From: an uncultured virus (IMG/VR IMGVR_UViG_3300050035_000427)
Lineage: Duplodnaviria; Heunggongvirae; Uroviricota; Caudoviricetes
Reading direction: 5' to 3' (one strand)
Length of the DNA stretch: 64,000 nt
IMG/VR virus record: IMGVR_UViG_3300050035_000427
Below are positions 1,581 to 42,046 of this stretch, piece after piece. Under the pieces are notes generated by a model. That model was not told the DNA's origin. It saw only the letters and a list, made by a program, of their open reading frames with translations, and ran no database searches. A program made the position numbers and the translations under genes. How positions within the stretch are numbered: the first letter of the stretch is position 1; each line of letters opens with the position of its first letter.

Positions 1581-2126
1581 CTAGACTGGATACGCTACTT
1601 CAGCGAGTTTCCTTCTCTTGCCGGCGGAAATAGCCGCGCACTCTTCCGGAGAGCGTTTCTTGCCCAGTCTTCCTCTAGCAAAGGACTGAAGAGTTGCCAA
1701 CGCAAGCGGGTGTGGTACTCTTCCTTTCTTCAACGCAGATTGACTATCACAGAATTCCTTAGTCCTTTTCTTTCCTATATTTGCTCTGCGGATTCTTTCA
1801 ACCACTTCTCTAGGCATCTTCCAACCAGACTTACCTTCTCCACCAAGGGTCTCGTTGTAGCCACTACCCAAAGAGGCAAGCGTACCTTGTGATTTGATGA
1901 ACTGCTTCTCGAGATCATTCAACAAACTGACTTCGCAGCAAGCAAGTTCCTGAATGGAAAAGTTGGAAGCACCATACTTTCGGATGGCCCGATACAGAGC
2001 AAAGTCAAGTCCGCTTTTTGCGTTGGCGACATGGTCCTTCCATCTCCCAGCCACCGATTTCGAGGTTTGTCCAACATACTTCTTCTGATTCACCAAGTTG
2101 ACAATAAGATAGATGAATCCATTCAT
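1581..2126 (-). CDS. GIY-YIG homing endonuclease
   Basis: FIYLIVNLVNQKKYVGQT...GYNETLGG, basic NUMOD3-like tail; start reassigned to MNGFIY. Confidence 0.9.
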   Translation of the reverse strand: MNGFIYLIVNLVNQKKYVGQTSKSVAGRWKDHVANAKSGLDFALYRAIRKYGASNFSIQELACCEVSLLNDLEKQFIKSQGTLASLGSGYNETLGGEGKSGWKMPREVVERIRRANIGKKRTKEFCDSQSALKKGRVPHPLALATLQSFARGRLGKKRSPEECAAISAGKRRKLAEVAYPV

Positions 2127-2290
2127 ACCTGATAGGTTCCTTCGAAACAGTCTTTGACATCCTGAAGTCCACAAGTACACTTTGGAGGAGGCTTCGTTCC
2201 GCCTTCTGCCACCTTCTTGTTCCACTCGCTCACTTTGCACTCAGGTGTGTGCTCAGCTTGCTCGAGGTACTCTTGTGCCTTGCTTAGCAT
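2123..2290 (-). CDS. small hypothetical protein with Cys/His motif
   Basis: MLSKAQEYLEQAEHTPECK...KCTCGL. Confidence 0.45.
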   Translation of the reverse strand: MLSKAQEYLEQAEHTPECKVSEWNKKVAEGGTKPPPKCTCGLQDVKDCFEGTYQV

Positions 2291-3339
2291 TTTCGGTTGC
2301 CCACTTGGTGATGATTCCATCCCAGGGTGTCTTCTGAGAGTTTGCTCTCTTCCAGGATGCAACGCGGCGGTCCCAGGATGACGATTTGTACTTGTTCACA
2401 GCCTCTACGAAATCCTTGGGAAGTTCAATCTCGATCTTGTAGTAGGACTCAGTCTGCTTGGCATTGAACGGAGCAACCAATGCTCTGGCTTTCTTCAGAT
2501 AATCACGGAGCCAGCGAAGCTCAGTGTCAATCTTGGGATCGTCCTCATCCTTCTTGAGAGCATCGTTCATCAAGCGAAGCAAGCTGGTGCAGTAGTTGGT
2601 ACGAGGAGTGCTGTACTTCAGATCTCTGAATTTGTCTTCCTTTTCACTACCTGCCAGAGCCGCTTCCATCTCCGCACGATACTTTTGGAGCTTTCCGTAC
2701 TCAACCGCTGTGAGATCAGCACCTTCAAGTTTCTGACCACACAGCTTCTCATACTTCTTTATGATCTCTGGCATGCGATTATTCTTATCATCTGCCAGAA
2801 GTGAAAGTAGCAGTTGCTCGAGCTCAGGCCACCGCTTGGGAGCAATGTGAGGAGGAGACGTCCATCTCTCTTTGGAACCATAGGAATTTGTGTTATTGAA
2901 CGCGAACTCGCCTGAAGTTCCGCCGTAGTAATACATCATGTCGTAGTCATCTTTGACTGCAATCATGGCTGCTTCAAGACTAGCATCACGCTCCTTGTAA
3001 TTCTTGAAAGCGTTGAATGTCAGCACATCTCCGAATCTCGTAGAACAGCAAGCCAGAACGAGGTCATGAAGATCCTGGCGCCAAGGCGACGAGCATCTGT
3101 AGTAGTATTGCTTGAGGAAGGCCTCCAGCTTGTTTCCGACCTTTTCGATGCCGGTAGTCTCAGTGTCGTATGAATCCTTGGTAGTCGGAGGCGGAGTTGC
3201 CACTCCCTGCTTCAGCAAGGCAATTGCTGCTTCTTCGAACTCTGGCCAAGGCTTCTCAGCATTGACTCTGAGATAGGTGTTGCTAACGAAGTTCTGTTTG
3301 TAATAGGTGAGGACTGCCTGCAGGTCGTTCATGGTCATC
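2253..3339 (-). CDS. hypothetical protein, possibly 5' truncated
   Basis: long ORF with internal PW/RWPE(F/L)E repeats; the 5' extension in the ORF track overlaps Y-RNA-like elements; no RBS. Confidence 0.7.
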
Positions 3340-4991: not shown

Positions 4992-5051
4992 TTAACCCTC
5001 CGCGAGCCTTGCAGGTTGCGGTCGAAATCGAAATGTTGGTCGCATTCTCAT
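4992..5051 (-). CDS. putative leader peptide of tRNA operon 1 (MRMRPTFRFRPQPARLAEG)
   Basis: ATG 8 nt after promoter GTAGA (leaderless); contains CCA, CCG, CCT and 2x TTT matching the downstream tRNAs; hairpin over stop codon. Confidence 0.6.
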   Translation of the reverse strand: MRMRPTFRFRPQPARLAEG

Positions 5052-29033: not shown

Positions 29034-29669
29034 TCAGATTACTCGAAAACAGTCACTCGTACAGGAGAAATCCGAGATCAGATGTTTTTCAATCATCTTG
29101 CTATCTGACTCTGCAAACGAGAGGGTTAGATCATCAGCAAGTTTGTTGAGTTGGAATCGAAAGGCCACCAGGTTCTCAGGACTGGATGCCATAATCTTGA
29201 TACGCTGGATGTAGTTGTTAGAGACAGTCTCTGGGAGAGTTGTAAGACCGATTAGTTCTTGCACCTCAGTCAATCTCGGGAGCGGAAAGTCCACATGATT
29301 TATCAGACAGGTGAGCTTGGCCCAAGAGCGAACCCTGTACGAGAGATCCTCCCATCTGGGAGCATCCCGCATAGCAAGATGGTACCTGATGTCTTCCTCC
29401 ATCTGGTGAATATGGAGGTAGTCCAGGCAATTCTCTAGAGACTTGGCATCCAAGCTCAGAAATCTAGCTCTCCGGCGTCGCTTCTCTTCCCGGACCTTCT
29501 GTAGAGAACAGACCGTAGAGTCTGCAATCCCCAAGGCACAGTTCACCAGTTGATCGTACTGAACCAGAGCTAGACTTTTCTCGTCGAATTTCTTGCCTTG
29601 TTCGAGCAGTGAATCGCGAACCTCGTAGAAGTTCTGAACTCCAAGGCTTTCAACGGTCACATTGGACAT
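29034..29669 (-). CDS. hypothetical protein
   Basis: 211-aa ORF. Confidence 0.7.
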   Translation of the reverse strand: MSNVTVESLGVQNFYEVRDSLLEQGKKFDEKSLALVQYDQLVNCALGIADSTVCSLQKVREEKRRRRARFLSLDAKSLENCLDYLHIHQMEEDIRYHLAMRDAPRWEDLSYRVRSWAKLTCLINHVDFPLPRLTEVQELIGLTTLPETVSNNYIQRIKIMASSPENLVAFRFQLNKLADDLTLSFAESDSKMIEKHLISDFSCTSDCFRVI

Positions 29670-29691
29670 GGTATCTATTACTTTTCATCAC

Positions 29692-30054
29692 TCAGAAGAG
29701 ATTGCGGGTTGGCAATCTATTTGGTCGATTTTTAAGCTCAGGGAACTCCGCCAAAGCCTCGCCATCCACTGCGATGTTGGCCGGATTCGGAGAGTCTTCA
29801 ACCTTCTCGCGCTGCTTGTTAGTGTCGCGCTGATTGGTCTGATTCTCCTCTTGAACAATTCCCGTCGTGTCGTACCCATATGCCTTCTTGAGCAATTTTG
29901 AACGGAATCTGAAACCGGCTGTGACGACAGTGAAAGTCTCTCCAGGTTTCGACTGTTTGGAAGCAGACACTTGGGCATTGCTGTCGCTTGTCGATATGAA
30001 CTCCCAAGTTCCAGCAAATTCACCATCCAAGTAATATGTGGCGATGTATTTCAT
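29692..30054 (-). CDS. hypothetical protein
   Basis: GAGGA RBS. Confidence 0.7.
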   Translation of the reverse strand: MKYIATYYLDGEFAGTWEFISTSDSNAQVSASKQSKPGETFTVVTAGFRFRSKLLKKAYGYDTTGIVQEENQTNQRDTNKQREKVEDSPNPANIAVDGEALAEFPELKNRPNRLPTRNLF

Positions 30055-30235
30055 GTCTGTCCTCTAAGAAGAGTACTGTAGTCTCTGTATATGGCCGAAA
30101 TCATCATACTCGACGACATGGCTCGATACAATGCACACCTTGCCAAGTGTGATCAGTGTTGGTATGCTAGATTTTGCTGGGATATGTGTGATAAGGGAAG
30201 GGAATTACAGGAGAAATCGTTTGCGATAAGAGTTT

Positions 30236-30312
30236 TGGCGACCCTGATGGGATTTGAACCCACGTTCCCGGCTTGAGAGGCCAGTCTCCTAGGCCATCTA
30301 GAGGACAGGGTC
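30236..30312 (-). tRNA. tRNA-Glu(CTC)
   Basis: CTGGC-CT CTC AA-GCCGG; CCA. Confidence 0.95.
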
Positions 30313-30325
30313 GTATGTGGAAAGT

Positions 30326-30402
30326 TGGTAGCGTGTATGGGATTTGAACCCATGATTCCCTGCGTGAAAGGCAGATGTCCTTGACCACTAGACGAACACG
30401 CC
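30326..30402 (-). tRNA. tRNA-Glu(TTC)
   Basis: CTGC-CT TTC AC-GCAG; CCA. Confidence 0.95.
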
Positions 30403-30416
30403 ACAGTCAAATTCTA

Positions 30417-30485
30417 TCCCGGATGATTGAGTCGTCCAGCGGTGTTTTCCTGGCATGGATAACGCTGAACAGTTCGACCCGGGAA
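30417..30485 (-). ncRNA. minimal Y-RNA-like RNA
   Basis: TCCCGG/CCGGGA terminal stem, GTCGAA...TTATC motif. Confidence 0.5.
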
Positions 30486-30489
30486 TTTC

Positions 30490-30565
30490 TGGTGGAGATA
30501 ACTGGAGTCGAACCAGTGGCCTCCGCAGTGCGAGTGCGGCGCTCTCCCAACTGAGCTATACCCCC
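30490..30565 (-). tRNA. tRNA-Ala(CGC)
   Basis: CCGCA-CT CGC AC-TGCGG; G3:U70; CCA. Confidence 0.95.
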
Positions 30566-30585
30566 GAAAAACTGCTACAAAACTT

Positions 30586-30661
30586 TGGTGGAGACAGAGG
30601 GGTTCGAACCCCCGACCTCTTGCTTGCAAAGCAGGCGCTCTCCCAACTGAGCTATGCCCCC
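30586..30661 (-). tRNA. tRNA-Ala(TGC)
   Basis: CCTGC-TT TGC AA-GCAAG; CCA. Confidence 0.95.
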
Positions 30662-30767
30662 ACGATGTCAGACAACAGCGCCTGACGGATAAATTCATCA
30701 GCATGAGAGGCGTCGAGTCGAGCCAAGCTCTGATCTCGTCCCTCTGGTTCATACTGCCTTGAAGTCT

Positions 30768-30843
30768 TGGTGGAGATGACAGGGTTCGAACCTGCGACCT
30801 CAACGCTGCCAGCGTCGCGCTCTCCCAACTGAGCTACACCCCC
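30768..30843 (-). tRNA. tRNA-Ala(GGC)
   Basis: CGACG-CT GGC AG-CGTTG; CCA. Confidence 0.95.
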
Positions 30844-30859
30844 ACTATCACGAAGATAC

Positions 30860-31030
30860 CACTGTGCCGCAAGCCTCTTGTGTACGCTATTCAAATCGGC
30901 ATCCAAATGTTCCTTCATGGTTCTCTCCATACTCAATCTTGGAGCGGGTTTCCAGGTTTCCCTGTTTCATGAACTGGCTCCATCCTGCAGGAACAGATAA
31001 CCAGACATGCTTCCTTGCGGAAGCCCGCAT
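30860..31030 (-). ncRNA. orphan structured RNA
   Basis: GCTTCC-GCAA-GGAAGC and CAGG-GAAA-CCTG GNRA hairpins; TGTTCCT/AGGAACA stem. Confidence 0.45.
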
Positions 31031-31040
31031 ATCAAAAAGT

Positions 31041-31117
31041 TGGCGGGGCCGACGAGACTTGAACTCGCGACTTCTTGCGTGACAGGCAAGCACTCTGACC
31101 AGCTGAGCTACGACCCC
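31041..31117 (-). tRNA. tRNA-Asp(GTC)
   Basis: CTTGC-CT GTC AC-GCAAG; CCA. Confidence 0.95.
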
Positions 31118-31911
31118 GCATTGTGCTTGTCATATATCTGAAACAGATCAGAGATAGCCAAGCCAGAAAACTTTTCAGCAAATGCAAATACTTCGGATAG
31201 ATCACTTTCAAAAAGGAAAGTCACATTTGGATGAGCCTTTTGTTTTGCCTCAGTTTGAGCAGAAGGCCATCCCTTGATTTCTATGAGTTTCCCATCCACT
31301 TCAAAGTCAGGAAAGAATTTCTTAAAAGATCCTTGGAATTCGTACTTCAACCCCAGCCTATTTCTCTGGATTGATTTCCCATTTTCTAGACACCAAATCA
31401 AGAAAGCACATTCCCAAGTTGATTGAACTAGAAATCCTCTGAATCTTCCTTGTTTTCCTCTTCCTCCCTTTTCTCGAAAACCACCTATCCTATTTGAGTT
31501 GTGAATACCCAACATCCGAATCATTCGTACACAATCATCCGAGCAAGTTATCCTCCCCTTTAAGGAAGGTTTCCCACAATATTTGCAAGGAACAGGAACT
31601 CGATTTCTGTCCCTTTCCTGCCGCTCTTTGCTTCGTATCTCTAGGATTCTCTTGTGACTTTCAGGACTCCAAGGATTCCTTGAAGCAAAACTACGAGCAC
31701 AGGATATCTTGCAAAACCGTTCTTTCTCTCCCTCCTTAATCTCTTTTTGGAAGGTAGTGTTACAATTCTCGCAAACAAACTGGCAAGTGATCCGATTATT
31801 ACAACAAGGTTTCTTAATTCTAGGTCGCAGAGAACAGTTCCGGATATGCGCTCCCCAAACTTGACCCCTTTCGTTCCCCCTCATCAATCTGCACCACTGG
31901 CACTGACTCAT
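31108..31911 (-). CDS. PD-(D/E)XK-type homing endonuclease inside tRNA operon 2
   Basis: zinc motifs, STWE, FFPDFEVDGKLIEIKGW. Confidence 0.85.
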   Translation of the reverse strand: MSQCQWCRLMRGNERGQVWGAHIRNCSLRPRIKKPCCNNRITCQFVCENCNTTFQKEIKEGEKERFCKISCARSFASRNPWSPESHKRILEIRSKERQERDRNRVPVPCKYCGKPSLKGRITCSDDCVRMIRMLGIHNSNRIGGFREKGGRGKQGRFRGFLVQSTWECAFLIWCLENGKSIQRNRLGLKYEFQGSFKKFFPDFEVDGKLIEIKGWPSAQTEAKQKAHPNVTFLFESDLSEVFAFAEKFSGLAISDLFQIYDKHNAGS

Positions 31912-31913
31912 GA

Positions 31914-31947
31914 TTCCGACCTCCTATAATCAAATAGGAAGTCGGAA
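31914..31947 (-). promoter_or_regulatory. 14-bp hairpin sequestering the endonuclease Shine-Dalgarno
   Basis: UUCCGACUUCCUAU-UUGAUU-AUAGGAGGUCGGAA immediately before ATG. Confidence 0.75.
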
Positions 31948-31954
31948 TTCAAAG

Positions 31955-32026
31955 AGCGGGTAGTCAGATTTGAACTGACGCATGATAGAGTGGAAGTCTA
32001 TTGCCTTACCACTTGGCGATACCCGC
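31955..32026 (-). tRNA. tRNA-Gly(TCC), CCA not encoded
   Basis: ATAGA-CT TCC AC-TCTAT. Confidence 0.9.
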
Positions 32027-32043
32027 AACTTGTACAACAAAAT

Positions 32044-32118
32044 TGGAGCGGCGGATGGGATTTGAACCCACGACCTCTTGCTTGGCAAGCAAATGTTCTA
32101 CCACTGAACTACCACCGC
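32044..32118 (-). tRNA. tRNA-Gly(GCC)
   Basis: TTGC-TT GCC AA-GCAA; CCA. Confidence 0.95.
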
Positions 32119-32123
32119 TCATC

Positions 32124-32234
32124 TGACGTGAATGAGTTTCGATTCATGTCTGGAATGCGCCCCCATAAACCCACCGCGATTGCCCCAATGGGCTTATGGT
32201 GGAGCAGATAACCCAAACACATCGACTCACGTCA
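32124..32234 (-). ncRNA. Y-RNA-like RNA
   Basis: TGACGTGA/TCACGTCA terminal stem, GTCGA...GGGTTATC motif. Confidence 0.6.
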
Positions 32235-32242
32235 TAAATCTC

Positions 32243-32380
32243 TGCACGAACGAAAAGTGAACTTCGTTTTTTAAGGCGTCCTAACCCCTAGACGACAGCC
32301 CCATGATTTGGCGGGGCCACCAGGATTCGAACCTGGGTATCCTCCTTGACAGGGAGAACAAAATTCTGACGGCTCGTGCA
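32243..32380 (-). ncRNA. YrlA-type Y RNA with circularly permuted tRNA-Asp-like domain
   Basis: TGCACGAGC/GTTCGTGCA stem enclosing anticodon arm (CU GUC AA), T arm GGTTCGAATCC, CCCCGCCA, linker, then GGGGCTG and D arm. Confidence 0.75.
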
Positions 32381-32387
32381 AAACCTT

Positions 32388-32465
32388 TGGTGCGCCGTCA
32401 GGGATTCGAACCCCGGACCTACTGCTTGTAAGGCAGCCGCTCTAACCGGACTGAGCTAACAGCGC
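32388..32465 (-). tRNA. tRNA-Val(TAC)
   Basis: CTGC-CT TAC AA-GCAG; CCA. Confidence 0.95.
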
Positions 32466-32478
32466 ACATCTTAGTACC

Positions 32479-32511
32479 AAAACGAAAAGGACAGCCGCTT
32501 GGGCTGTCCTT
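32479..32511 (-). terminator. attenuator intrinsic terminator upstream of tRNA operon 2
   Basis: GGACAGCC-CAAGC-GGCTGTCC followed by TTTTCGTTTT. Confidence 0.85.
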
Positions 32512-32530
32512 GGTTGAATCTCGCTGAAGT

Positions 32531-32635
32531 TTAGCTGATTCGCACCAAGGACAGATGCCCGGTATCCACGCCCTCCGCTGCTTCAGCGGCGACGACCGTT
32601 GCAACTGCTCCGACGAATTCAACCATGCTCTTCAT
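32531..32635 (-). CDS. leader peptide of tRNA operon 2 (MKSMVEFVGAVATVVAAEAAEGVDTGHLSLVRIS)
   Basis: GGAG RBS; 19 of codons 5-26 are GNN; contains antiterminator strand CTGTCCTTGGT. Confidence 0.8.
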   Translation of the reverse strand: MKSMVEFVGAVATVVAAEAAEGVDTGHLSLVRIS

Positions 32636-32915
32636 GACAATCTCCATAATACTACGGATTTGCTCTCCGTAAACTACTATTTTTGCCACCAGGCAAAAGA
32701 TTTCGCGTGTAGGAGGATGATAGCCCAGACACTGGTGACCAGATGTGACTATCACCACTACACGCATCTCAAACTTTGCGACGGAGTTTAGCACCCTCTA
32801 AAGTGTCGCTCACTCCATCGTTCAGGAAGGTTTCGCACTTTCGCGTACACCTACAACCCTGTCATCTAGGACATCGCTGTTATGCTAGTTCATCGAAGCT
32901 CAATTTGTCGGCGAC

Positions 32916-33008
32916 CCGCTCTGGTCGTCCTGCGCTTCTGTTCGATCTTCCGACATGTTTCCATGCCTACCGTCTTCGAATTTCAGACCGCTCTGGTCGT
33001 CCTGCGCT
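32916..33008 (-). repeat. two identical 21-nt direct repeats (AGCGCAGGACGACCAGAGCGG)
   Basis: ccgctctggtcgtcctgcgct at ~32916 and ~32988. Confidence 0.85.
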
Positions 33009-33022
33009 ATCGCCTGATTACC

Positions 33023-33050
33023 TCTACGGAGCAACTTGGGAAAACGGGTA
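33023..33050 (-). promoter_or_regulatory. phage promoter motif copy 6 (tRNA operon 2)
   Basis: TACCCGTTTT-N13-GTAGA. Confidence 0.6.
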
Positions 33051-33407
33051 ATCCTTGTCATCTTTGATGATTTTCACTTCAATGAGAGAGTCTTTAAGCT
33101 GATCGTAAACCTCAGGCGAGATATTGACACAACCCTCAGTCACGTTCCTTCTCTGTAAAGGATCAGCGGAATCCAATCGTTCCTCACGATGCTGAGAAGG
33201 AATTAGAAGCCACGTTCGATGGATAGCATACACTCTGTCTGGTAGCTCATCAAACACAAGAATGTCTCCGCCGTAGCCAGGAGCCTTAGTGCTTTTATGA
33301 ACCACGGAGAAATCACCAGTCGGAGTTAATCTGCCGACCAAGGCCGGGTAGCAGTGGCCTTGGAAACAGATCAACGCCGAGTTGAGAAGAATAAAAGCGA
33401 CGATCAT
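33024..33407 (-). CDS. L,D-transpeptidase-like protein
   Basis: YPALVG..TP.G.F, YAIHRTW, VTEGCVN (His/Cys catalytic pattern). Confidence 0.75.
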   Translation of the reverse strand: MIVAFILLNSALICFQGHCYPALVGRLTPTGDFSVVHKSTKAPGYGGDILVFDELPDRVYAIHRTWLLIPSQHREERLDSADPLQRRNVTEGCVNISPEVYDQLKDSLIEVKIIKDDKDYPFSQVAP

Positions 33408-34402
33408 TACTGGCTAATCTTCTTGGTTTCTTGTGGAAACACGGTGTAAGCAGGAACAGGAACAGGAGTTGGAGACGTAGCTGTCGCCGGCACTGGTGAT
33501 GCTGGAGGCATCGCAACTGTGGGAGTTGTCACAACCTGAGGAGGAATAATGGATTGTGGCTGTTGTGTAACTGGCGCTGCTGGAGATGATGCGACGACTG
33601 GATTCGTCATCTCGGCCACCTGAGCATCGGAGATTTGGACAGCCATAACGATCAGACCTTCTTTGTAAACAGGTCCTGCTGTCGCATGGTTGAGACCAGT
33701 TCCGGCACTGTATGCCTGAGATCCCGTAGCAGCGGAGCCGGTCAAAGCTGCACCGACCGCGCCCATGCCAACTCCCCATCCCGTGGTTGTGGTGCTTGTC
33801 GTTGTCACCTTCTTAACCAAGAAGATACCGTTCGCATGCATGTGCAGCGTCTCGATCACCGCCTTGGCAATCACGTCGATAGTGTTGGATTTCTTTCCAC
33901 CTTGAAGGAAGATGTACCCAACGCGAGAAAACTTGGAGTCATCGAAAACCAGGATCGGTTTTCCATTTTCCTCAACGATTCTCCCATCCTTACCGATGAG
34001 TGCCTTCGTCGGCAGAGACTTGAGAATTTTGCAGGTGCTGAACTGATAACTGCCGTCAGCCATCCTGTTGACTCGTGCCGACACCCCTCCGTTGTACATC
34101 TGCTTGGCCTCGCCGAGAGTGATTTCTTCGGGCAAAGAGACCAGGTTATCCATGATATTGGCGCCTGTGCTCCACGGCCCCAGATACACTTCCACTGGCG
34201 CTTGATAGGGTGCTACTGGTGATGCAAACCACCGACCCGTACTCGGATCAGAAGCTGCATAGTTTTGGTTGACCACCGACGATGACCCTGCTGTTGCTCC
34301 CGATGTTGCTCCGGATGTCGTCATAGTCTGTGCGAATGTCGTAGCCACCGCGAATGCCATTAATGCGATTGTGGTAGCAGCAAGTAACCTCTTCACGTTC
34401 AT
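33407..34402 (-). CDS. secreted/periplasmic protein with signal peptide
   Basis: MNVKRLLAATT...TTFA-Q signal; Gly-rich segment; Pro/Thr-rich tail. Confidence 0.8.
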   Translation of the reverse strand: MNVKRLLAATTIALMAFAVATTFAQTMTTSGATSGATAGSSSVVNQNYAASDPSTGRWFASPVAPYQAPVEVYLGPWSTGANIMDNLVSLPEEITLGEAKQMYNGGVSARVNRMADGSYQFSTCKILKSLPTKALIGKDGRIVEENGKPILVFDDSKFSRVGYIFLQGGKKSNTIDVIAKAVIETLHMHANGIFLVKKVTTTSTTTTGWGVGMGAVGAALTGSAATGSQAYSAGTGLNHATAGPVYKEGLIVMAVQISDAQVAEMTNPVVASSPAAPVTQQPQSIIPPQVVTTPTVAMPPASPVPATATSPTPVPVPAYTVFPQETKKISQ

Positions 34403-34470
34403 AAATCTCCTTTATGTAGGTGGGAGGTTATCCTCCCACCCATCATTGTTGAGGTCAAAACGCAGTAGAA

Positions 34471-35112
34471 CTACGGCTTGAAAGTGGGAGTAATGGACGA
34501 TGTCGACACTGTGGAAGCAACGCTGGTAACAGAGTAGCCTCCGTTCACCCCAGCGATGAGCGTATTGCCCTTGCCAGTGGTGGAACCGGAACCAGTAACC
34601 ACATTTCCAACGGTCGGAGAAGGGCCATTGCCGGCGTACAAGAATGCACCAGAGGTAGCGGTGCTGCCCTGTGCTCCGTTGCTGATGTCACCATTCGAAA
34701 CTCCGGCCACGGTCTGCATGGAACCGCTGCCACTGACAGCCGCAGTGTATCCGTTATTGGCATACACAGCTACGCCAGCGGTGTTCTGGGTGTTTCCAAA
34801 TGTGGTCGCGCTATGGTCGGTGAGAGATCCATTGACCGTCGAACTGCCGGTGACCCGTGCTGTTCCGTTCGCGCCGTCGTTGTACTGCCATGAACTGGTG
34901 GGAACTGCAACATTCGTGCCGGTGAACGAAGCCGCACTGATCTGACCGCCACCTGCACCATAATAACCAGCCGAATTGGTCTGGTTAACGACAGCGTTGT
35001 TGATCTGGGTCGTACTTCCGGATACGACGACGGGATTCTGAGCAATTGCCATCGTTCCGGCGGCAATGAGCGCAGCAATGGTCAACGTGCTAAATGCAAA
35101 CATCTTTTTCAT
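34471..35112 (-). CDS. secreted Gly/Ser/Thr/Asn-rich protein
   Basis: MKKMFAF...AIA-Q signal peptide; AGGAG RBS. Confidence 0.8.
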   Translation of the reverse strand: MKKMFAFSTLTIAALIAAGTMAIAQNPVVVSGSTTQINNAVVNQTNSAGYYGAGGGQISAASFTGTNVAVPTSSWQYNDGANGTARVTGSSTVNGSLTDHSATTFGNTQNTAGVAVYANNGYTAAVSGSGSMQTVAGVSNGDISNGAQGSTATSGAFLYAGNGPSPTVGNVVTGSGSTTGKGNTLIAGVNGGYSVTSVASTVSTSSITPTFKP

Positions 35113-37466: not shown

Positions 37467-40400
37467 CTAACTGCATCCAGTTGTTTGTCCACAATCGTTG
37501 CACTTTTCACAGGTTCCGGATCTCACCATGTGCATAGATCCGCAAGCACCACAGGAGTTCCCAGTGAAACCACTGCGCTTGGCTTCACTGGCCTCTGATA
37601 CGGTTGGCAAACGTGTTTCTTTGTCTACTAACAGCCCCAATGATTTCACCTTTTCCTTGTCCTCAGGTTTGATGTGGGCAAGGTCATAGCGATCCAGATA
37701 GGTGATTGCCAACTCACGGAAGACATAATCCATCAGAGAAGTGGCATTCTTGACATAGCTGGAACCCTGAACAAATCCAGAAGGTTCAAACTTGGTGAAA
37801 GTGAACGCATCCACAAACTCCTCGAGCGGAACGCCGTACTGCAATCCCAGACTGATGGCGATAGCAAAGCAGTTGAGGAGAGAACGCAAGGTTGCTCCCT
37901 CGCGACTGACATCGATGAAGACCTCTCCCAACCTGCCATCCTCGTACTCCCCGGTGTGCAGATAGAGGGAATGATCGCCAATTTTGGCCTTCTGTACAAA
38001 TCCATGGCGACGGTATGGTAGACGCTTGCGAAATCCTCGAGCTAATGCTTCTGCCAAGACAGCAGCTTTTGTGTCGTTGTTGGCACCGCTGGTGAGCACT
38101 TCAACTTCCTTCTCATCCAGGCCCTCCAGCAGCTGCATGTTTGTGGCTAGAGCCTGTGACATCTTGGATCCGTCACGATACAGAGCCACTGCTTTGATGC
38201 CAAGTTCCCACGCCAACAGATGAATGTCATTGAAGTCTTGTTGAGTAGAGTTGGCCGGGAGATTTACAGTCTTGCTGATAGCTCCTGAAATGAAGGGTTG
38301 AACAGCTGCCATCATCTCCACATGAGCACGTGGAGAGATGAAACGAGTACCATTTTCACCACACTTGTTGGCACAATCGAACACGGCCAAGTGAGCATTC
38401 TTCAAGGCCGGTGCCCCTTCGATGGTCTTCTCGTTCTCGATGTGCTTGAGGATCTCAACCACTTGTTCGTCCGTGTACCCCAAGTTCTTCAAGGCCGGAG
38501 GGACAGACTGATTGACTATCTTGAAGTATCCTCCACCGGCCAACTTCTTGAACTTCACCAGAGCATAGTCAGGTTCCGCTCCCGTCGTGTCGCAATCCAT
38601 CACCAACCCGATGGTCCCTGTCGGAGCCAAGCAGGTGCTCTGGGCATTCCTCAACCCGAATTCCTCAACCTGAGACACTACCTTGTCCCAGATGTCACGA
38701 GCCTGAGTGACCAGCTTTCTTGGTCCACGATAGAGAAGTTTCAGACCCACAGGAGTAGTTGAAAGCCCATCGTATCCAAGCTCTCCATTGTAAGCAGCCG
38801 AACGATGGTTCCGCATCACTTTCAAGACAACCTCTCGATTTTCATCATAGCCAGGAAACACTCCCAACTTCTGAGCCAAATCTGAGGATGTCAGGTACGA
38901 TTCACCTGTCATGATGGCAGTGATGGCCGCAGCCCAGTTTCGGCCGGTCTCACTGTCATAAGGAAAGCCCAGCTGCATGAGCATGGCGCCAAGGTTCGCG
39001 TATCCCAAGCCCAGGGTGCGGAACTTGTATGACAACTCAGCAATCGAGGGTCCTGGGAACTGAGCCATCGTTACAGAAATCTCTAGAGCGATGGTTGTCA
39101 AACGGCAGCAATGGCGGAAGGCCTCGACGTTGAACTCTCCGTCTTCCAGGAACTTCACGAGATTTGAGGAAGCCAGATTGCAGGCAGTGTCATCCAGGAA
39201 CATGTACTCGCTGTTGTGTATAAACACACCAGAAAAGTTGTCGTGACCATTCACACAAGACGGTTTTGACGAAGTGAAAACAGCAAAGTTGTGGGTATTG
39301 TCTACCGTACCATCGTAGACGTCTTCATTACCACAGAACTCTACCGAAACAACCGTATGGTTGAAGTTGACCACGGCCTCTTGTAGTAACTCATCAGTGG
39401 GGTACCAACGAACAATAGTGTCTTTTGTGGGAAATTTCTTCACTCCAAGTTGCTTTGCTACATCTCGTAGTTCTTCCCAATTTTCTAGAGAAAAAGAAAC
39501 TCCATTATCTTGAAAAGTTCGAGCAACCTCAGCAATCATACCCTCGATTAAACGCTTCGAGTGACGTTCTCCAAACATTTGTTTACCAAGTGGAGATCTC
39601 TGACATTCAGTACCACAGCAAATCTGATCCTCCAAAATGGTGATGAAATTACCACGGCATATAGGGCAGCAACGCTCAAATCGTTCAGCAGTTACTGTAC
39701 GACCAATATGCCTACCCTCTGATCGCATTTTTGTTTGTGTTTCTCTTATAGATCTACTCAACTGTTCGTGTTGTTGGTGGTCTTCCCATCTAGAAACTGC
39801 AGAATTACTCATATTCTGTTTGGAAACTTCACTGTGCTGTTTTCCAAACATAGGGTTAAGTTCACCAGTGATTGATTTTGAAATGTTGGCACGCCATTCA
39901 TCATTCATTAAACGACGGGCTGGATTATTGTCACCAAGCATTGATTCCCGATGCAAAGCTGCATGATCCTTCGCAGACAATAGCTTGAAATTTTGTGGGT
40001 TATCATTCAGAGCATCAAAATCAGAGTGATGAATGTGATAACCTTCCGGTGCTTGACCAAAAAAGAAATCGTTAATTAAACGATACTGCTGAGCCCAACG
40101 AGTACCTCCCCACACATTTCTACGACGCGTGGCTCCTTTTCCATTTTGGATTATGGAAGAGTGAAAAGGCATAAGAGAATCACCAGGTTGTAGGTCTATA
40201 ACCTTTCGGTATGAACCATCCCGCAGCATCATAAGTTCGTCGTCAGTAACACGTAGGCTACTTCCATCGTCAAACGTAACGCAGAAAATGGGAGCATTAG
40301 TTCTTTTAACTCCAATATTCCACATCAATTCTATTGAAGTCTTTTGCGTCCTGTGATTCCTGGTAAACACAGGCACTTCTGTTCCTACCAAATCTCTAAT

Positions 40401-41861
40401 AGGAACCGCTGTACGACCATCTGCTACAGCCACCAAAGTCTCCCCAGTAACACAGCACGGATTGCTGGCATTGATTCTTCCGGAATTCAGACAAGTGTGC
40501 CAGTCATTGATGGTCGTGTCGAACTGGATCCCAGGATCTGCACAAAGGAAAGAAGCCCGGTTGATCTGATCAAACAACTTCTTGGCCTTAAGAGTCTTGG
40601 CCACTTCCCCGGTGGTGCGGAAGGTCAGATTCCAGTCCCTGTCCTTTTTGACGGCATGCATGAATTCATCTGTGACACGAATTGTGTTGTTGGCATTCAT
40701 GCCTGAGACTGTCTGGTATGCCTCTCCCTCCCAGTTCAGATCGTACAGAGGAAGATCGTCAGTGAAGTCAGATTCAGACAAACGAGTCAGACACTGCCCT
40801 AGAAATGCTCCAGGCACTCCCATTTTTCTGGCATGGCTGATGACTTTGGCAAGCTCCTTGTTCTCTTTCGGATTTGCCTTCAAAGCCAAATCTTTGGAAG
40901 TGAAGGTGTTGTAAGCCTCCAGCATCTCTCCCCAGATGGTGCGAAGGAGTTGACTGCCAGCAGCCATTGCAACAACCTTGCGCTCTTCATTCACCTTCCA
41001 GTTGATGAAGGCCTCTACATCGGGATGGTCCACATTGAGAACAACCATCTTGGCTGCTCTGCGGGTGGTTCCTCCAGACTTCACTCCTCCGGCTCCGACG
41101 TCTCCCACCTTCAACCAAGACATGAGACCTGAGCTCTTTCCGCCGCCGCTCAAAGGTTCTCCATATCCACGCAGGGCAGAGAAGTTGGATCCTGTTCCGG
41201 AGCCATACTTGAACAAGCGAGCCTCGCGATGGAACAGGTCGAAGATTCCTCCAGGATTGACGAGGTCGTCTTTCACTCCCTGAATGAAGCAGGCATGAGG
41301 CTGAGGACGCTTGTACGCAGAATCGCTCACGGTCAACTCTTTGGTGCCGTCGTCGACATAGTAGTGACCCTGTGGATCTCCCTCAATTCCGTATGCCCAG
41401 TACAAGCCGGTATTGAACCACTGAGGGGAATTGGGAGCAACGTACTGCATCACCACCATGTAGAGCATCTCGTCGTAGTAGGCTTGGGCGTCTTTCTCTG
41501 AAGAGAAGTATCCGTATTCCTCTCCCCACCCAGTCCAGCAACCTACGATTCTATGAGCAGTCTGTCTCACATCAGTTTCGTAAGTGATCCCATCCGGATG
41601 GTCCAGCTTGGAGGCCCACTCGGTGGAGTACTTGCTGTTGTAAAGGGAGTTGGGGTGGTTGTGATTCACTCCTTGCCGGCGGAAATACTTCTGGGCAAGG
41701 ATATCCAAGGCAGTCTGAGACCAGGATTCTGGCACGATGACATTGTCGTTCTCAAAAACCACAGAATTGTCTGGTCTAACGATGTTGGAGCATCTCCGTA
41801 TGAAGCTGATGCCCTCTAAAGGCGACTGTCCGGCCTTGGTGAAAATTCGCTTTACCTTCAT
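37467..41861 (-). CDS. nrdJ: B12-dependent (class II) ribonucleotide reductase, intein-containing
   Basis: PNSPQWFN, PHACFI, GGTTRRAAKM, NPC|SEY, APTGTIG, GAISKT, YRDGSK, C-terminal zinc ribbon. Confidence 0.95.
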   Translation of the reverse strand: MKVKRIFTKAGQSPLEGISFIRRCSNIVRPDNSVVFENDNVIVPESWSQTALDILAQKYFRRQGVNHNHPNSLYNSKYSTEWASKLDHPDGITYETDVRQTAHRIVGCWTGWGEEYGYFSSEKDAQAYYDEMLYMVVMQYVAPNSPQWFNTGLYWAYGIEGDPQGHYYVDDGTKELTVSDSAYKRPQPHACFIQGVKDDLVNPGGIFDLFHREARLFKYGSGTGSNFSALRGYGEPLSGGGKSSGLMSWLKVGDVGAGGVKSGGTTRRAAKMVVLNVDHPDVEAFINWKVNEERKVVAMAAGSQLLRTIWGEMLEAYNTFTSKDLALKANPKENKELAKVISHARKMGVPGAFLGQCLTRLSESDFTDDLPLYDLNWEGEAYQTVSGMNANNTIRVTDEFMHAVKKDRDWNLTFRTTGEVAKTLKAKKLFDQINRASFLCADPGIQFDTTINDWHTCLNSGRINASNPCCVTGETLVAVADGRTAVPIRDLVGTEVPVFTRNHRTQKTSIELMWNIGVKRTNAPIFCVTFDDGSSLRVTDDELMMLRDGSYRKVIDLQPGDSLMPFHSSIIQNGKGATRRRNVWGGTRWAQQYRLINDFFFGQAPEGYHIHHSDFDALNDNPQNFKLLSAKDHAALHRESMLGDNNPARRLMNDEWRANISKSITGELNPMFGKQHSEVSKQNMSNSAVSRWEDHQQHEQLSRSIRETQTKMRSEGRHIGRTVTAERFERCCPICRGNFITILEDQICCGTECQRSPLGKQMFGERHSKRLIEGMIAEVARTFQDNGVSFSLENWEELRDVAKQLGVKKFPTKDTIVRWYPTDELLQEAVVNFNHTVVSVEFCGNEDVYDGTVDNTHNFAVFTSSKPSCVNGHDNFSGVFIHNSEYMFLDDTACNLASSNLVKFLEDGEFNVEAFRHCCRLTTIALEISVTMAQFPGPSIAELSYKFRTLGLGYANLGAMLMQLGFPYDSETGRNWAAAITAIMTGESYLTSSDLAQKLGVFPGYDENREVVLKVMRNHRSAAYNGELGYDGLSTTPVGLKLLYRGPRKLVTQARDIWDKVVSQVEEFGLRNAQSTCLAPTGTIGLVMDCDTTGAEPDYALVKFKKLAGGGYFKIVNQSVPPALKNLGYTDEQVVEILKHIENEKTIEGAPALKNAHLAVFDCANKCGENGTRFISPRAHVEMMAAVQPFISGAISKTVNLPANSTQQDFNDIHLLAWELGIKAVALYRDGSKMSQALATNMQLLEGLDEKEVEVLTSGANNDTKAAVLAEALARGFRKRLPYRRHGFVQKAKIGDHSLYLHTGEYEDGRLGEVFIDVSREGATLRSLLNCFAIAISLGLQYGVPLEEFVDAFTFTKFEPSGFVQGSSYVKNATSLMDYVFRELAITYLDRYDLAHIKPEDKEKVKSLGLLVDKETRLPTVSEASEAKRSGFTGNSCGACGSMHMVRSGTCEKCNDCGQTTGCS
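39213..40454 (-). mobile_element. intein (~414 aa) with HNH endonuclease
   Basis: CVTGET start; VYDGTVDNTHNF...FIHN|S end; IHHSDFDALNDNPQN HNH motif. Confidence 0.9.
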
Positions 41862-42046
41862 GCTATTGTGTCCTTGGGTATGGGGGATTTCGAGGGTCAG
41901 AAATCGTACGTGATGATTCAATACTCAGCCTATGAAAGATTGGTTACAAGTTACCGATTACCAAGGTGGTTACTCACTCGGGTGCGTATTTCTTCATGCG
42001 GCGAAAGCATCGCCAAACGCTGGTCTCACTGGTAGGATGGATAAGT

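Follow-up and report, generated by a model that had tools for sequence, protein, structure and literature searches.

What decides when a phage expresses the tRNA genes that it carries? The usual accounts of such genes, compensation for codon usage and escape from tRNA-cleaving defences, are silent on the control of their expression. We took up this question at one locus of a giant soil phage, in a 64,000-nt stretch of DNA (hereafter the window) from an uncultured virus of the Caudoviricetes (IMG/VR record IMGVR_UViG_3300050035_000427). Nine tRNA genes lie there on the minus strand behind a 34-codon open reading frame (ORF) and an intrinsic terminator, which an initial annotation had proposed to act as a leader-peptide attenuator. 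We consider it probable that they do, and that the leader ties transcription of tRNA-Val, and probably of the whole block of tRNAs reading GNN codons, to the speed at which GNN codons are decoded. A leader that reads the codons served by the tRNAs downstream of it would be a self-contained controller of tRNA supply and demand, and would carry the attenuation logic of trp, his and ilv from amino-acid synthesis over to the decoding machinery.

A leader ORF rich in the codons of the downstream tRNAs

The ORF, its GGAG ribosome-binding site and the terminator reported in the initial annotation are all present on the minus strand, and ARAGORN returns the same set of nine tRNAs (32465 down to 30236), each reading GNN codons:

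32642-32645, minus strand: Shine-Dalgarno-like GGAG, found in the sequence 6 nt 5' of the ATG at 32635
32531-32635, minus strand: leader ORF MKSMVEFVGAVATVVAAEAAEGVDTGHLSLVRIS, 34 codons plus TAA (32533-32531)
32479-32511, minus strand: intrinsic terminator, found by consensus scan and confirmed by inverted-repeat search; 10-bp stem (32511-32487), 5-nt loop, tail UUCGUUUUGG and a U tract UUUUCGUUUU that runs to 32479
32388-32465, minus strand: tRNA-Val(UAC), called by ARAGORN, 13 nt past the U tract
30236-32118, minus strand: eight further GNN-reading tRNAs, Gly-GCC, Gly-UCC, Asp-GUC, Ala-GGC/UGC/CGC and Glu-UUC/CUC

GNN codons account for 20 of the 34 codons of the leader, and a recount of codons 5-26 gave the same 19 of 22 as before, the exceptions being UUC, ACG and ACC. 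Against a background of 33.0% GNN (18,048 codons from the 48 long ORFs of the window), 20/34 has a binomial p of 0.0017, and at least 20/34 is reached in 0.66% of the 16,464 34-codon segments of those ORFs. Nineteen GNN codons per 22 are reached nowhere in them, and none of 488 small ATG ORFs (15-60 codons) matches the 20/34 content of the leader. The bias is absent from the three other ORFs within 450 nt upstream (p = 0.44-0.98); an 87-codon in-frame extension of the leader ORF does show it (p = 0.019), owing to the leader part. For every one of the nine tRNAs the ORF contains one or more cognate codons, a correspondence that is unremarkable alone (P = 0.21 for 20 GNN codons drawn at phage usage). 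By strict wobble rules, the block's own tRNAs read 15 of the 20 leader GNN codons. The peptide itself has no family match.

Mutually exclusive helices in the folded leader

Pairing potential within the leader centres on three segments of the ORF and the terminator:

32605-32625, minus strand: segment 1 (codons 4-11), putative anti-antiterminator, paired with segment 2 in the ribosome-free minimum-energy fold
32537-32554, minus strand: segment 2, CUGUCCUUGGU (codons 28-31) plus GAAUC, 5' strand of the antiterminator
32504-32520, minus strand: segment 3, GAUUC plus ACCAAGGACAG, 3' strand of the antiterminator, overlapping the 5' arm of the terminator

The 11-nt perfect complement between codons 28-31 (32554-32544) and the 5' side of the terminator (32514-32504), first pointed out in the initial annotation, is lengthened by GAAUC/GAUUC and was returned independently by an inverted-repeat search. 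When the 126 nt upstream were compared with the 21 nt around the terminator 5' arm after dinucleotide shuffling, a complement of at least 11 nt arose in 8 of 20,000 shuffles. Consensus scanning for promoters and terminators gave 4 sites against 4.6 and 4.5 expected, the region being unenriched in this respect.

As an isolated hairpin, the predicted antiterminator, at -26.3 kcal/mol, is more stable than the terminator, at -16.7 kcal/mol. It is built from the 11 bp, an internal loop, the GAAUC/GAUUC helix and 3 further bp, and its apical part contains the stop codon. In the best fold of the whole 168-nt leader (-67.2 kcal/mol), codons 4-11 instead pair with the segment-2 region and the terminator is intact; forcing the antiterminator costs 3.6 kcal/mol (-63.6). 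The ribosome-free leader has a terminator probability of 0.97 in the equilibrium fold. We then placed a 30-nt mask around the A site at each codon in turn, in equilibrium models that exclude pausing and kinetics. With the A site at codons 1-14 the antiterminator probability is 0.79-0.95, codons 15-23 yield mixed folds, and at codons 24-35, stop included, the terminator returns (0.89-0.92). Switching is cleaner in the variant carried by a relative, L002, where A sites at codons 10-22 give the antiterminator (0.91-0.98) and those from codon 26 onward the terminator. Shuffling of the 91 nt before segment 2 lowers the mean terminator probability to 0.24, with 0.9 or more kept in 5% of 400 shuffles; the anti-antiterminator is non-trivial, with modest significance.

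In these models the leader is composed of the three mutually exclusive helices (1:2, 2:3 and 3:4) of a classical attenuator, a scheme set out for pheL in the available part of PMC3082878. Mask folding therefore agrees with the trp/his/ilv-type logic proposed earlier, in which full translation favours the terminator and a stall within the GNN codons the antiterminator. A cmscan of 29500-34500 (E ≤ 1) returned only tRNAs and chance matches, with no Rfam leader family, T-box or other cis-regulator.

From these parts we infer translation, stalling and read-through as follows. A transcript arriving from upstream would carry the 34-codon ORF. If the ORF is untranslated, or is quickly read to its stop, segment 2 would be paired with segment 1 or hidden under the ribosome; with segment 2 so occupied the terminator would form, and RNA polymerase would halt 13 nt before tRNA-Val. 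A ribosome lingering on codons 5 to ~21 would instead cover segment 1 and leave segment 2 to pair with the terminator 5' arm. The terminator being blocked, transcription would pass into tRNA-Val, a tRNA-like RNA described below and probably the other GNN tRNAs. The outcome would be negative feedback, with the supply of charged Val, Ala, Gly, Asp and Glu tRNA setting the output of the GNN block. Cleavage of tRNAs by a host defence, or starvation, is a possible trigger, as the initial annotation suggested.

Conservation of the core unit among relatives

The leader is found in L002, L006 and L010 (a second IMG/VR contig and a metagenome contig, identical in sequence to each other). An exact 27-mer matched the window's record and one relative in IMG/VR. 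Searches with a 309-aa neighbouring protein (IMG/VR and metagenomes) gave L006 and L010, together with a leaderless fragment (L011) and two distant non-syntenic loci (L007 and L012); a helicase search of IMG/VR further gave L018, on a contig that stops short of the leader. A 20-mer of the upstream repeat had one match, in an unrelated GC-rich contig (L015), and was set aside as chance.

The sequences in which the leader is present are all near-identical. The ORF is identical in L002, L006 and L010 and in contigs from four RNA-library runs, with no difference in 32531-32635. From the -35 element to the terminator, the L002 type and the window differ at two places, a substitution in the promoter spacer and an inserted G; the latter falls in the internal loop between the antiterminator helices, and 11 pairs are kept via a G-U pair. 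Directly upstream, the same two sequences show at least 7 differences and a 131-nt deletion, and downstream a different tRNA-Val(UAC) sequence follows the U tract of L002 immediately while the leader is conserved. The RNA-library contigs vary at 32659-32703 (7 sites) and in the U tract (1-2-base deletions), and they include the same inserted base and a 72-nt deletion. The core unit is conserved while its flanks vary.

The flank upstream is a non-coding stretch (32700-33023) in which a long hairpin (~32765-32706) and two direct repeats of 21 nt (32916-32936 and 32988-33008) occur. Natural deletions remove 72 nt between the 21-nt repeats (run X1) or 131 nt at 32769-32899 (L002 and run X16); since variants lack these parts, the upstream region is dispensable, unlike the core from ORF to terminator.

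Transcription into and through the leader

The initial annotation named a tRNA promoter downstream of the terminator as a finding that would speak against its proposal. The gap from the U tract to tRNA-Val is 13 nt in the window and 0 nt in L002, which is too short for a promoter, so tRNA-Val must rely on read-through. Two promoter-like sites bear on transcription of the locus:

32646-32673, minus strand: putative promoter-like site TTTACG-16-TATTAT, the sole match to this pattern in the window
30438-30411: promoter-like site within the tRNA block, from the consensus scan

The first is the only sigma-70-like site nearby. A start upstream of it, one that takes in the ribosome-binding site, is plausible because the module shared with L002 begins ~390 nt farther upstream, at the end of the preceding gene, and because RNA-library contigs reach 32755 and 32694, beyond the proximal site. 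Eighteen runs on record as RNA contain part of 32300-33100, and contigs of four were compared; parts left uncovered in them were not counted as evidence. A 542-nt contig of run X1 (32213-32755) and a 453-nt contig of run X2 (32241-32694) span the ORF, terminator, tRNA-Val and tRNA-like RNA, and a 1,622-nt contig of the L002 type in run X16 bridges likewise. These agree with read-through transcripts, as contigs that lack strand, level and ends and that may stem from DNA carry-over. In run X6, and in that run only, one 151-nt contig stops at 32480, where the U tract ends.

Some signals were discarded. Breaks at 32755 and 32758 (runs X1 and X6), considered as start sites, were read as assembly breaks, lying in a hairpin arm and near the edge of the variant's 131-nt deletion. 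Very deep 31-nt pieces at 32308-32336 are generic T-arm sequence. The motif GAGGTAWYMW has 4 sites against 1.46 expected (at least 4 in 2 of 100 shuffles). A GTAGT motif 12-24 nt 5' of the ATG in 3 of 6 leaders was picked post hoc and is not significant; GTAGA or ATAGT occurs in two further leaders, so that 5 of 6 carry GTAGT, or a sequence one letter away from it, 12-26 nt 5' of the ATG.

Codon-matched mini-ORFs in cultured phages

The nearest cultured relative is Tunturiibacter phage Tunturi_5 (PP885688.1; 309 kb; helicase 37.5% identical), whose host is an acidobacterium from tundra soil according to the available part of its description (PMC11924767); its partner in culture is Tunturiibacter psychrotolerans X4BP1. 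Its 38 tRNA-model matches fall into three blocks, each preceded by a mini-ORF and then an intrinsic terminator:

Block A: Leu x4, Cys, Tyr, Ser x3; mini-ORF MKTLCLSSYCLSSSLSLSDGWDLRTGRDADMI at L022 1357-1455, record positions 231156-231254; terminator abutting tRNA-Leu
Block B: one tRNA of undetermined type, Gln x2, Gly, Thr x3, Pro x4, His, Ala x3, Phe; mini-ORF MQHVSTFRFAVPATAGNPAGQQGTNACDTGGGKVVKW at L021 2930-3043, record positions 239222-239335; terminator at L021 3069-3086
Block C: Trp, Asp, Met x2, Lys x2, Val x2, Arg x4, Glu x2, Ile, Gly; mini-ORF MKQILKQLGHDFDIRGKRGVVVDTWDITIRGERKWSDVRDMRVLRERPV at L023 1274-1423, record positions 251573-251722; terminator following

Measured against the composition of 6,298 long-ORF residues, each mini-ORF is enriched in the amino acids of its own block: 16/31 for A (p = 1.1e-4), 23/36 for B (p = 3.2e-4) and 37/48 for C (p = 8e-5). 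All six off-diagonal pairings of leader and block have p ≥ 0.86, and codons 4-18 of leader A are without exception Leu, Cys, Ser or Tyr. This match is the strongest evidence that such mini-ORFs have been fitted to their tRNA blocks by selection. Leader C is annotated as gp308, a hypothetical protein, and A and B are unannotated; in the available part of the paper on Tunturi_5, which lists the tRNAs, the words 'leader' and 'attenuat-' are absent and the mini-ORFs go unmentioned (PMC11924767). The start context GUCAUGAA(A/G), encoding Met-Lys, is common to the GNN leader (32631-32640) and leaders A and C (L022 1353-1362; L023 1270-1279).

Xanthomonas phage XacN1 (AP018399.1), a more distant cultured jumbo phage, has a matched mini-ORF before one of the eight tRNA groups with an amino-acid set; most of its other tRNA groups lie directly 3' of protein genes. 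The ORF in question, MNKPYYKRYYAKA, has 13 codons (L027 1929-1970, equal to 30428-30469) and is located within a tRNA cluster, immediately ahead of Lys-CUU, Lys-UUU and Tyr-GUA. Lys or Tyr make up 7/12 of its residues (p = 7e-6), and neither a clear Shine-Dalgarno site nor a clear terminator accompanies it. Elsewhere in XacN1 (L027 7548-7706), ARAGORN places two adjacent tRNAs with anticodon CUA that would read the amber stop.

Other tRNA blocks of the same phage

The tRNA genes of the phage itself are grouped by codon class, the nine GNN readers being separate from three Pro tRNAs with Phe and from a set of Lys-UUU, Arg-CCU and Arg-UCU. The grouping is retained in the relative L002, which adds a Val-GAC within its GNN block. 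One of the other two blocks has a weaker candidate leader:

4992-5051, minus strand: 19-codon ORF MRMRPTFRFRPQPARLAEG, before Pro-CGG, Phe-GAA, Pro-GGG and Pro-UGG (4880-4277)

With CCA, CCG, CCU and two UUU, Pro and Phe make up 5 of its 19 codons (p = 0.019-0.028), one codon for each Pro isoacceptor. The ORF is identical in the relative, where a frameshifting indel breaks two overlapping Pro/Phe-rich ORFs just upstream. We regard it as a weak parallel to the GNN leader. A 'TFRF' string at the same position in this mini-ORF and in Tunturi_5 leader B was rejected as a sign of homology (shuffle p = 0.041 in one of nine comparisons, with an unconvincing DNA alignment).

The Lys/Arg block stands at the contig end (L003 4824-5464). 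A 15-codon mini-ORF there, MRKPSDEPGKRTVRS, was not counted as a leader: it runs into the tRNA, is without AGR codons and has no scored terminator. A 26-mer from this putative leader matched the window's record alone. Upstream of tRNA-Lys (L003 5465-5692, minus strand) are four palindromic segments of the CUGAUC/GAUCAG type, the last followed by UUUUG; they can form alternative hairpins, including CCGGAUCAG with CUGAUCCGG, in a region cut by the contig end.

Weighing the explanations

An attenuator sensitive to GNN decoding has to be set against a switch that is real and is governed by something else: an antitermination factor of phage or host, a small RNA, a tRNA, or a general sensor of translation coupling, the GNN bias being secondary. 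We regard this, the main rival, as unlikely. In its favour, the structural evidence is independent of which codons the ORF holds, and in the model a ribosome anywhere in codons 1-14, start codon included, frees the antiterminator. A short terminated leader behind a promoter also fits processive antitermination of the kind seen at lambda PR'-6S-tR'. What is hard to explain without decoding is a GNN bias phased strictly in 3 nt (19/22, a density with no counterpart in the 48 long ORFs). Codon-matched mini-ORFs before three Tunturi_5 blocks with different amino-acid sets, and the lack of any T-box or other Rfam cis-regulator at E ≤ 1, speak against such a switch too.

A plainer view takes the ORF as a small gene of the usual kind, encoding a peptide or a small RNA and ending in a terminator of its own; the tRNAs would be made by leaky read-through or from other promoters, and the complement would merely stabilise the transcript. 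Small hydrophobic peptides rich in Ala, Val and Gly are indeed common, the terminator is canonical, the site at 30438-30411 may serve downstream tRNAs, and in L004 a DUF559 ORF (Vsr-like endonuclease fold; 2040-2603, reverse strand), mobile-looking, parts the Pro/Phe mini-ORF from tRNA-Pro. Yet a plain terminator would not be expected to come with a competitor and with a third segment acting to restore it, no space for a promoter is left between the terminator and tRNA-Val, the peptide is without a family match, and mini-ORF and tRNA block match in amino acids four times in two phages; we hold this explanation to be improbable. Least credible is coincidence, an accidental ORF and an accidental complement beside a terminator, to which we attach very little weight. 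It can draw on the consensus promoter and terminator matches, which are no commoner than in shuffles, and on the probability of 0.21 for a cognate codon for every tRNA; it sits poorly with the rarity of the complement (8/20,000), the GNN bias (p = 0.0017-0.0066; 0/488 small ORFs), the anti-antiterminator (5% of 400 shuffles) and a unit that is invariant between variable flanks.

Codon-sensing attenuation thus remains the reading that we favour, and the following observations weigh against it. By strict wobble, five of the seven Val codons of the leader (GUU x2, GUC x3) are unread by the window's Val-UAC, which corrects the initial annotation. The stems and ORF are identical in all relatives, leaving no substitution for a test of covariation or synonymous change, and the compensatory changes envisaged earlier are therefore unavailable for comparison. 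Transcription from the site at 32673-32646 would start at ~32640-32638, 3' of GGAG, in which case the ORF would need an upstream transcription start or leaderless translation. The extent of the operon is uncertain, given the tRNA-like RNA, a 267-codon ORF and the promoter-like site 30438-30411 inside the block. In Tunturi_5 the complement to the terminator 5' arm is not significant in any leader (p = 0.07-0.9), and in the mask model A never loses its terminator, B loses it in two zones and C at few codons; clear antiterminators are missing, and the support from this phage does not fully extend to the mechanism. Within the window's own phage there is no terminator before the Pro/Phe block or the Lys/Arg block, and the Lys/Arg mini-ORF has no AGR codon. 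In the pyrimidine-rich region upstream of the Pro/Phe block, two of the five remaining ORFs share this richness in Pro and Phe, and regional composition may explain the codon bias of MRMRPTFRFRPQPARLAEG.

Relation to known systems

Ribosome-mediated attenuation is textbook knowledge for trp, his, leu, thr, ilv and pheA. The leader resembles the enterobacterial attenuators (ilvGMEDA, ilvBN, thr, trp, his, leu and pheA) in its short ORF with a Shine-Dalgarno site and concentrated regulatory codons, in three exclusive pairings of which 3:4 is the intrinsic terminator, and in a stop codon placed such that a terminating ribosome would block segment 2; as in ilv and thr, several amino acids would be sensed together. 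It differs from them in that the genes under control would be phage tRNA genes rather than biosynthetic enzymes, so that the product of read-through is the very molecule whose shortage is sensed. It differs further in its scope, five amino acids and nine tRNAs that all belong to the GNN codon class, and in matching no Rfam leader family. A choice between terminator and antiterminator in a 5' leader that reports tRNA charging is shared with the T-box, which binds uncharged tRNA, needs no translation and serves synthetase or amino-acid genes; here, by contrast, there is a phased GNN ORF and no T-box match at E ≤ 1. The lambda PR'-6S RNA-tR' unit with Q likewise places a promoter, a short transcript and a strong terminator before genes that await activation. 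The target of Q is RNA polymerase, with no need for an alternative fold or ORF, whereas the present leader has a significant RNA competitor and an ORF that looks translated.

The nearest functional analogue that we found is the trn operon of Anabaena sp. PCC 7120, by analogy a supernumerary tRNA array that is silent until translation is impaired (PMC8421152, PMC10272220, available parts). Control there is by a ribbon-helix-helix repressor, TrcR, as the available part of PMC10272220 describes, in contrast to the attenuation proposed here; the array has no leader peptide and resides on a cellular megaplasmid, not in a phage. In the available part of PMC8421152 the words attenuat-, leader, small ORF and terminator are absent. 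A full-text literature search, with most subscription journals outside its coverage, returned no published account of a leader peptide controlling tRNA genes, in agreement with the novelty claimed in the initial annotation. A Phe-rich leader of the E. coli tRNA-Phe genes was considered as a precedent and dropped: the ~105 nt upstream of pheV in MG1655 hold no such ORF.

Seen together with Tunturi_5, the locus raises the wider idea that large phages may sort their tRNA genes into regulons, with a leader 'test gene' that gates each block and spells out its codons or amino acids, an idea that we hold to be as likely as not. If it is true, each tRNA set would be made according to how slowly its codons are decoded, whether through loss of host tRNAs, cleavage or late-gene demand. 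It would also explain the sorting into GNN, Pro/Phe and Lys/Arg sets, and would hold in at least two distant giant phages of the Acidobacteriota type. Because this layout recurs in a jumbo phage that is in culture and whose host is known, Tunturi_5, the idea is testable by infection transcriptomics and reporter assays.

The tRNA-like RNA and the genomic setting

Downstream of tRNA-Val come the tRNA-like RNA, a 150-nt spacer, the two Gly tRNAs, the 267-codon ORF and six more tRNAs. Two of these features are not canonical tRNA genes:

32240-32383, minus strand: tRNA-like RNA in permuted order, between tRNA-Val and tRNA-Gly
31108-31911, minus strand: 267-codon Cys-rich ORF, mobile-looking, between Gly-UCC and Asp

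The order of the former is an anticodon-like hairpin (loop CUGUCAA), T arm, acceptor 3' strand plus CCA, a 6-nt linker, acceptor 5' strand and D arm, closed by a terminal stem of ~22 bp (fold z = -2.27). It scores 23.5 bits with the tRNA model, under the 29-bit cut-off. The predicted topology, with terminal stem, closed acceptor stem and T and D arms, is YrlA-like in the fold model; a search of 32200-32400 gave no Rfam YrlA match at E ≤ 10. The predicted 3' end coincides with the stop of contigs in two RNA runs (32240/32241), and the L002-type relative is without this RNA. The 267-codon ORF (31911-31108) has no family match.

The window comes from a 111,691-bp IMG/VR contig, whose coordinates are those of the window plus 841. 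By CheckV the contig has a completeness of 36%, from which a phage genome of roughly 300 kb follows. Genes surrounding the leader are mostly on the minus strand, and the neighbourhood includes a UvsX-like recombinase, a DnaB-like helicase, a second DNA helicase and a ribonucleotide reductase. The large-subunit ORF of the reductase (1,484 codons; 37467-41921, minus strand) has an HNH-endonuclease match at residues 618-662, which suggests an inserted intein or homing element.

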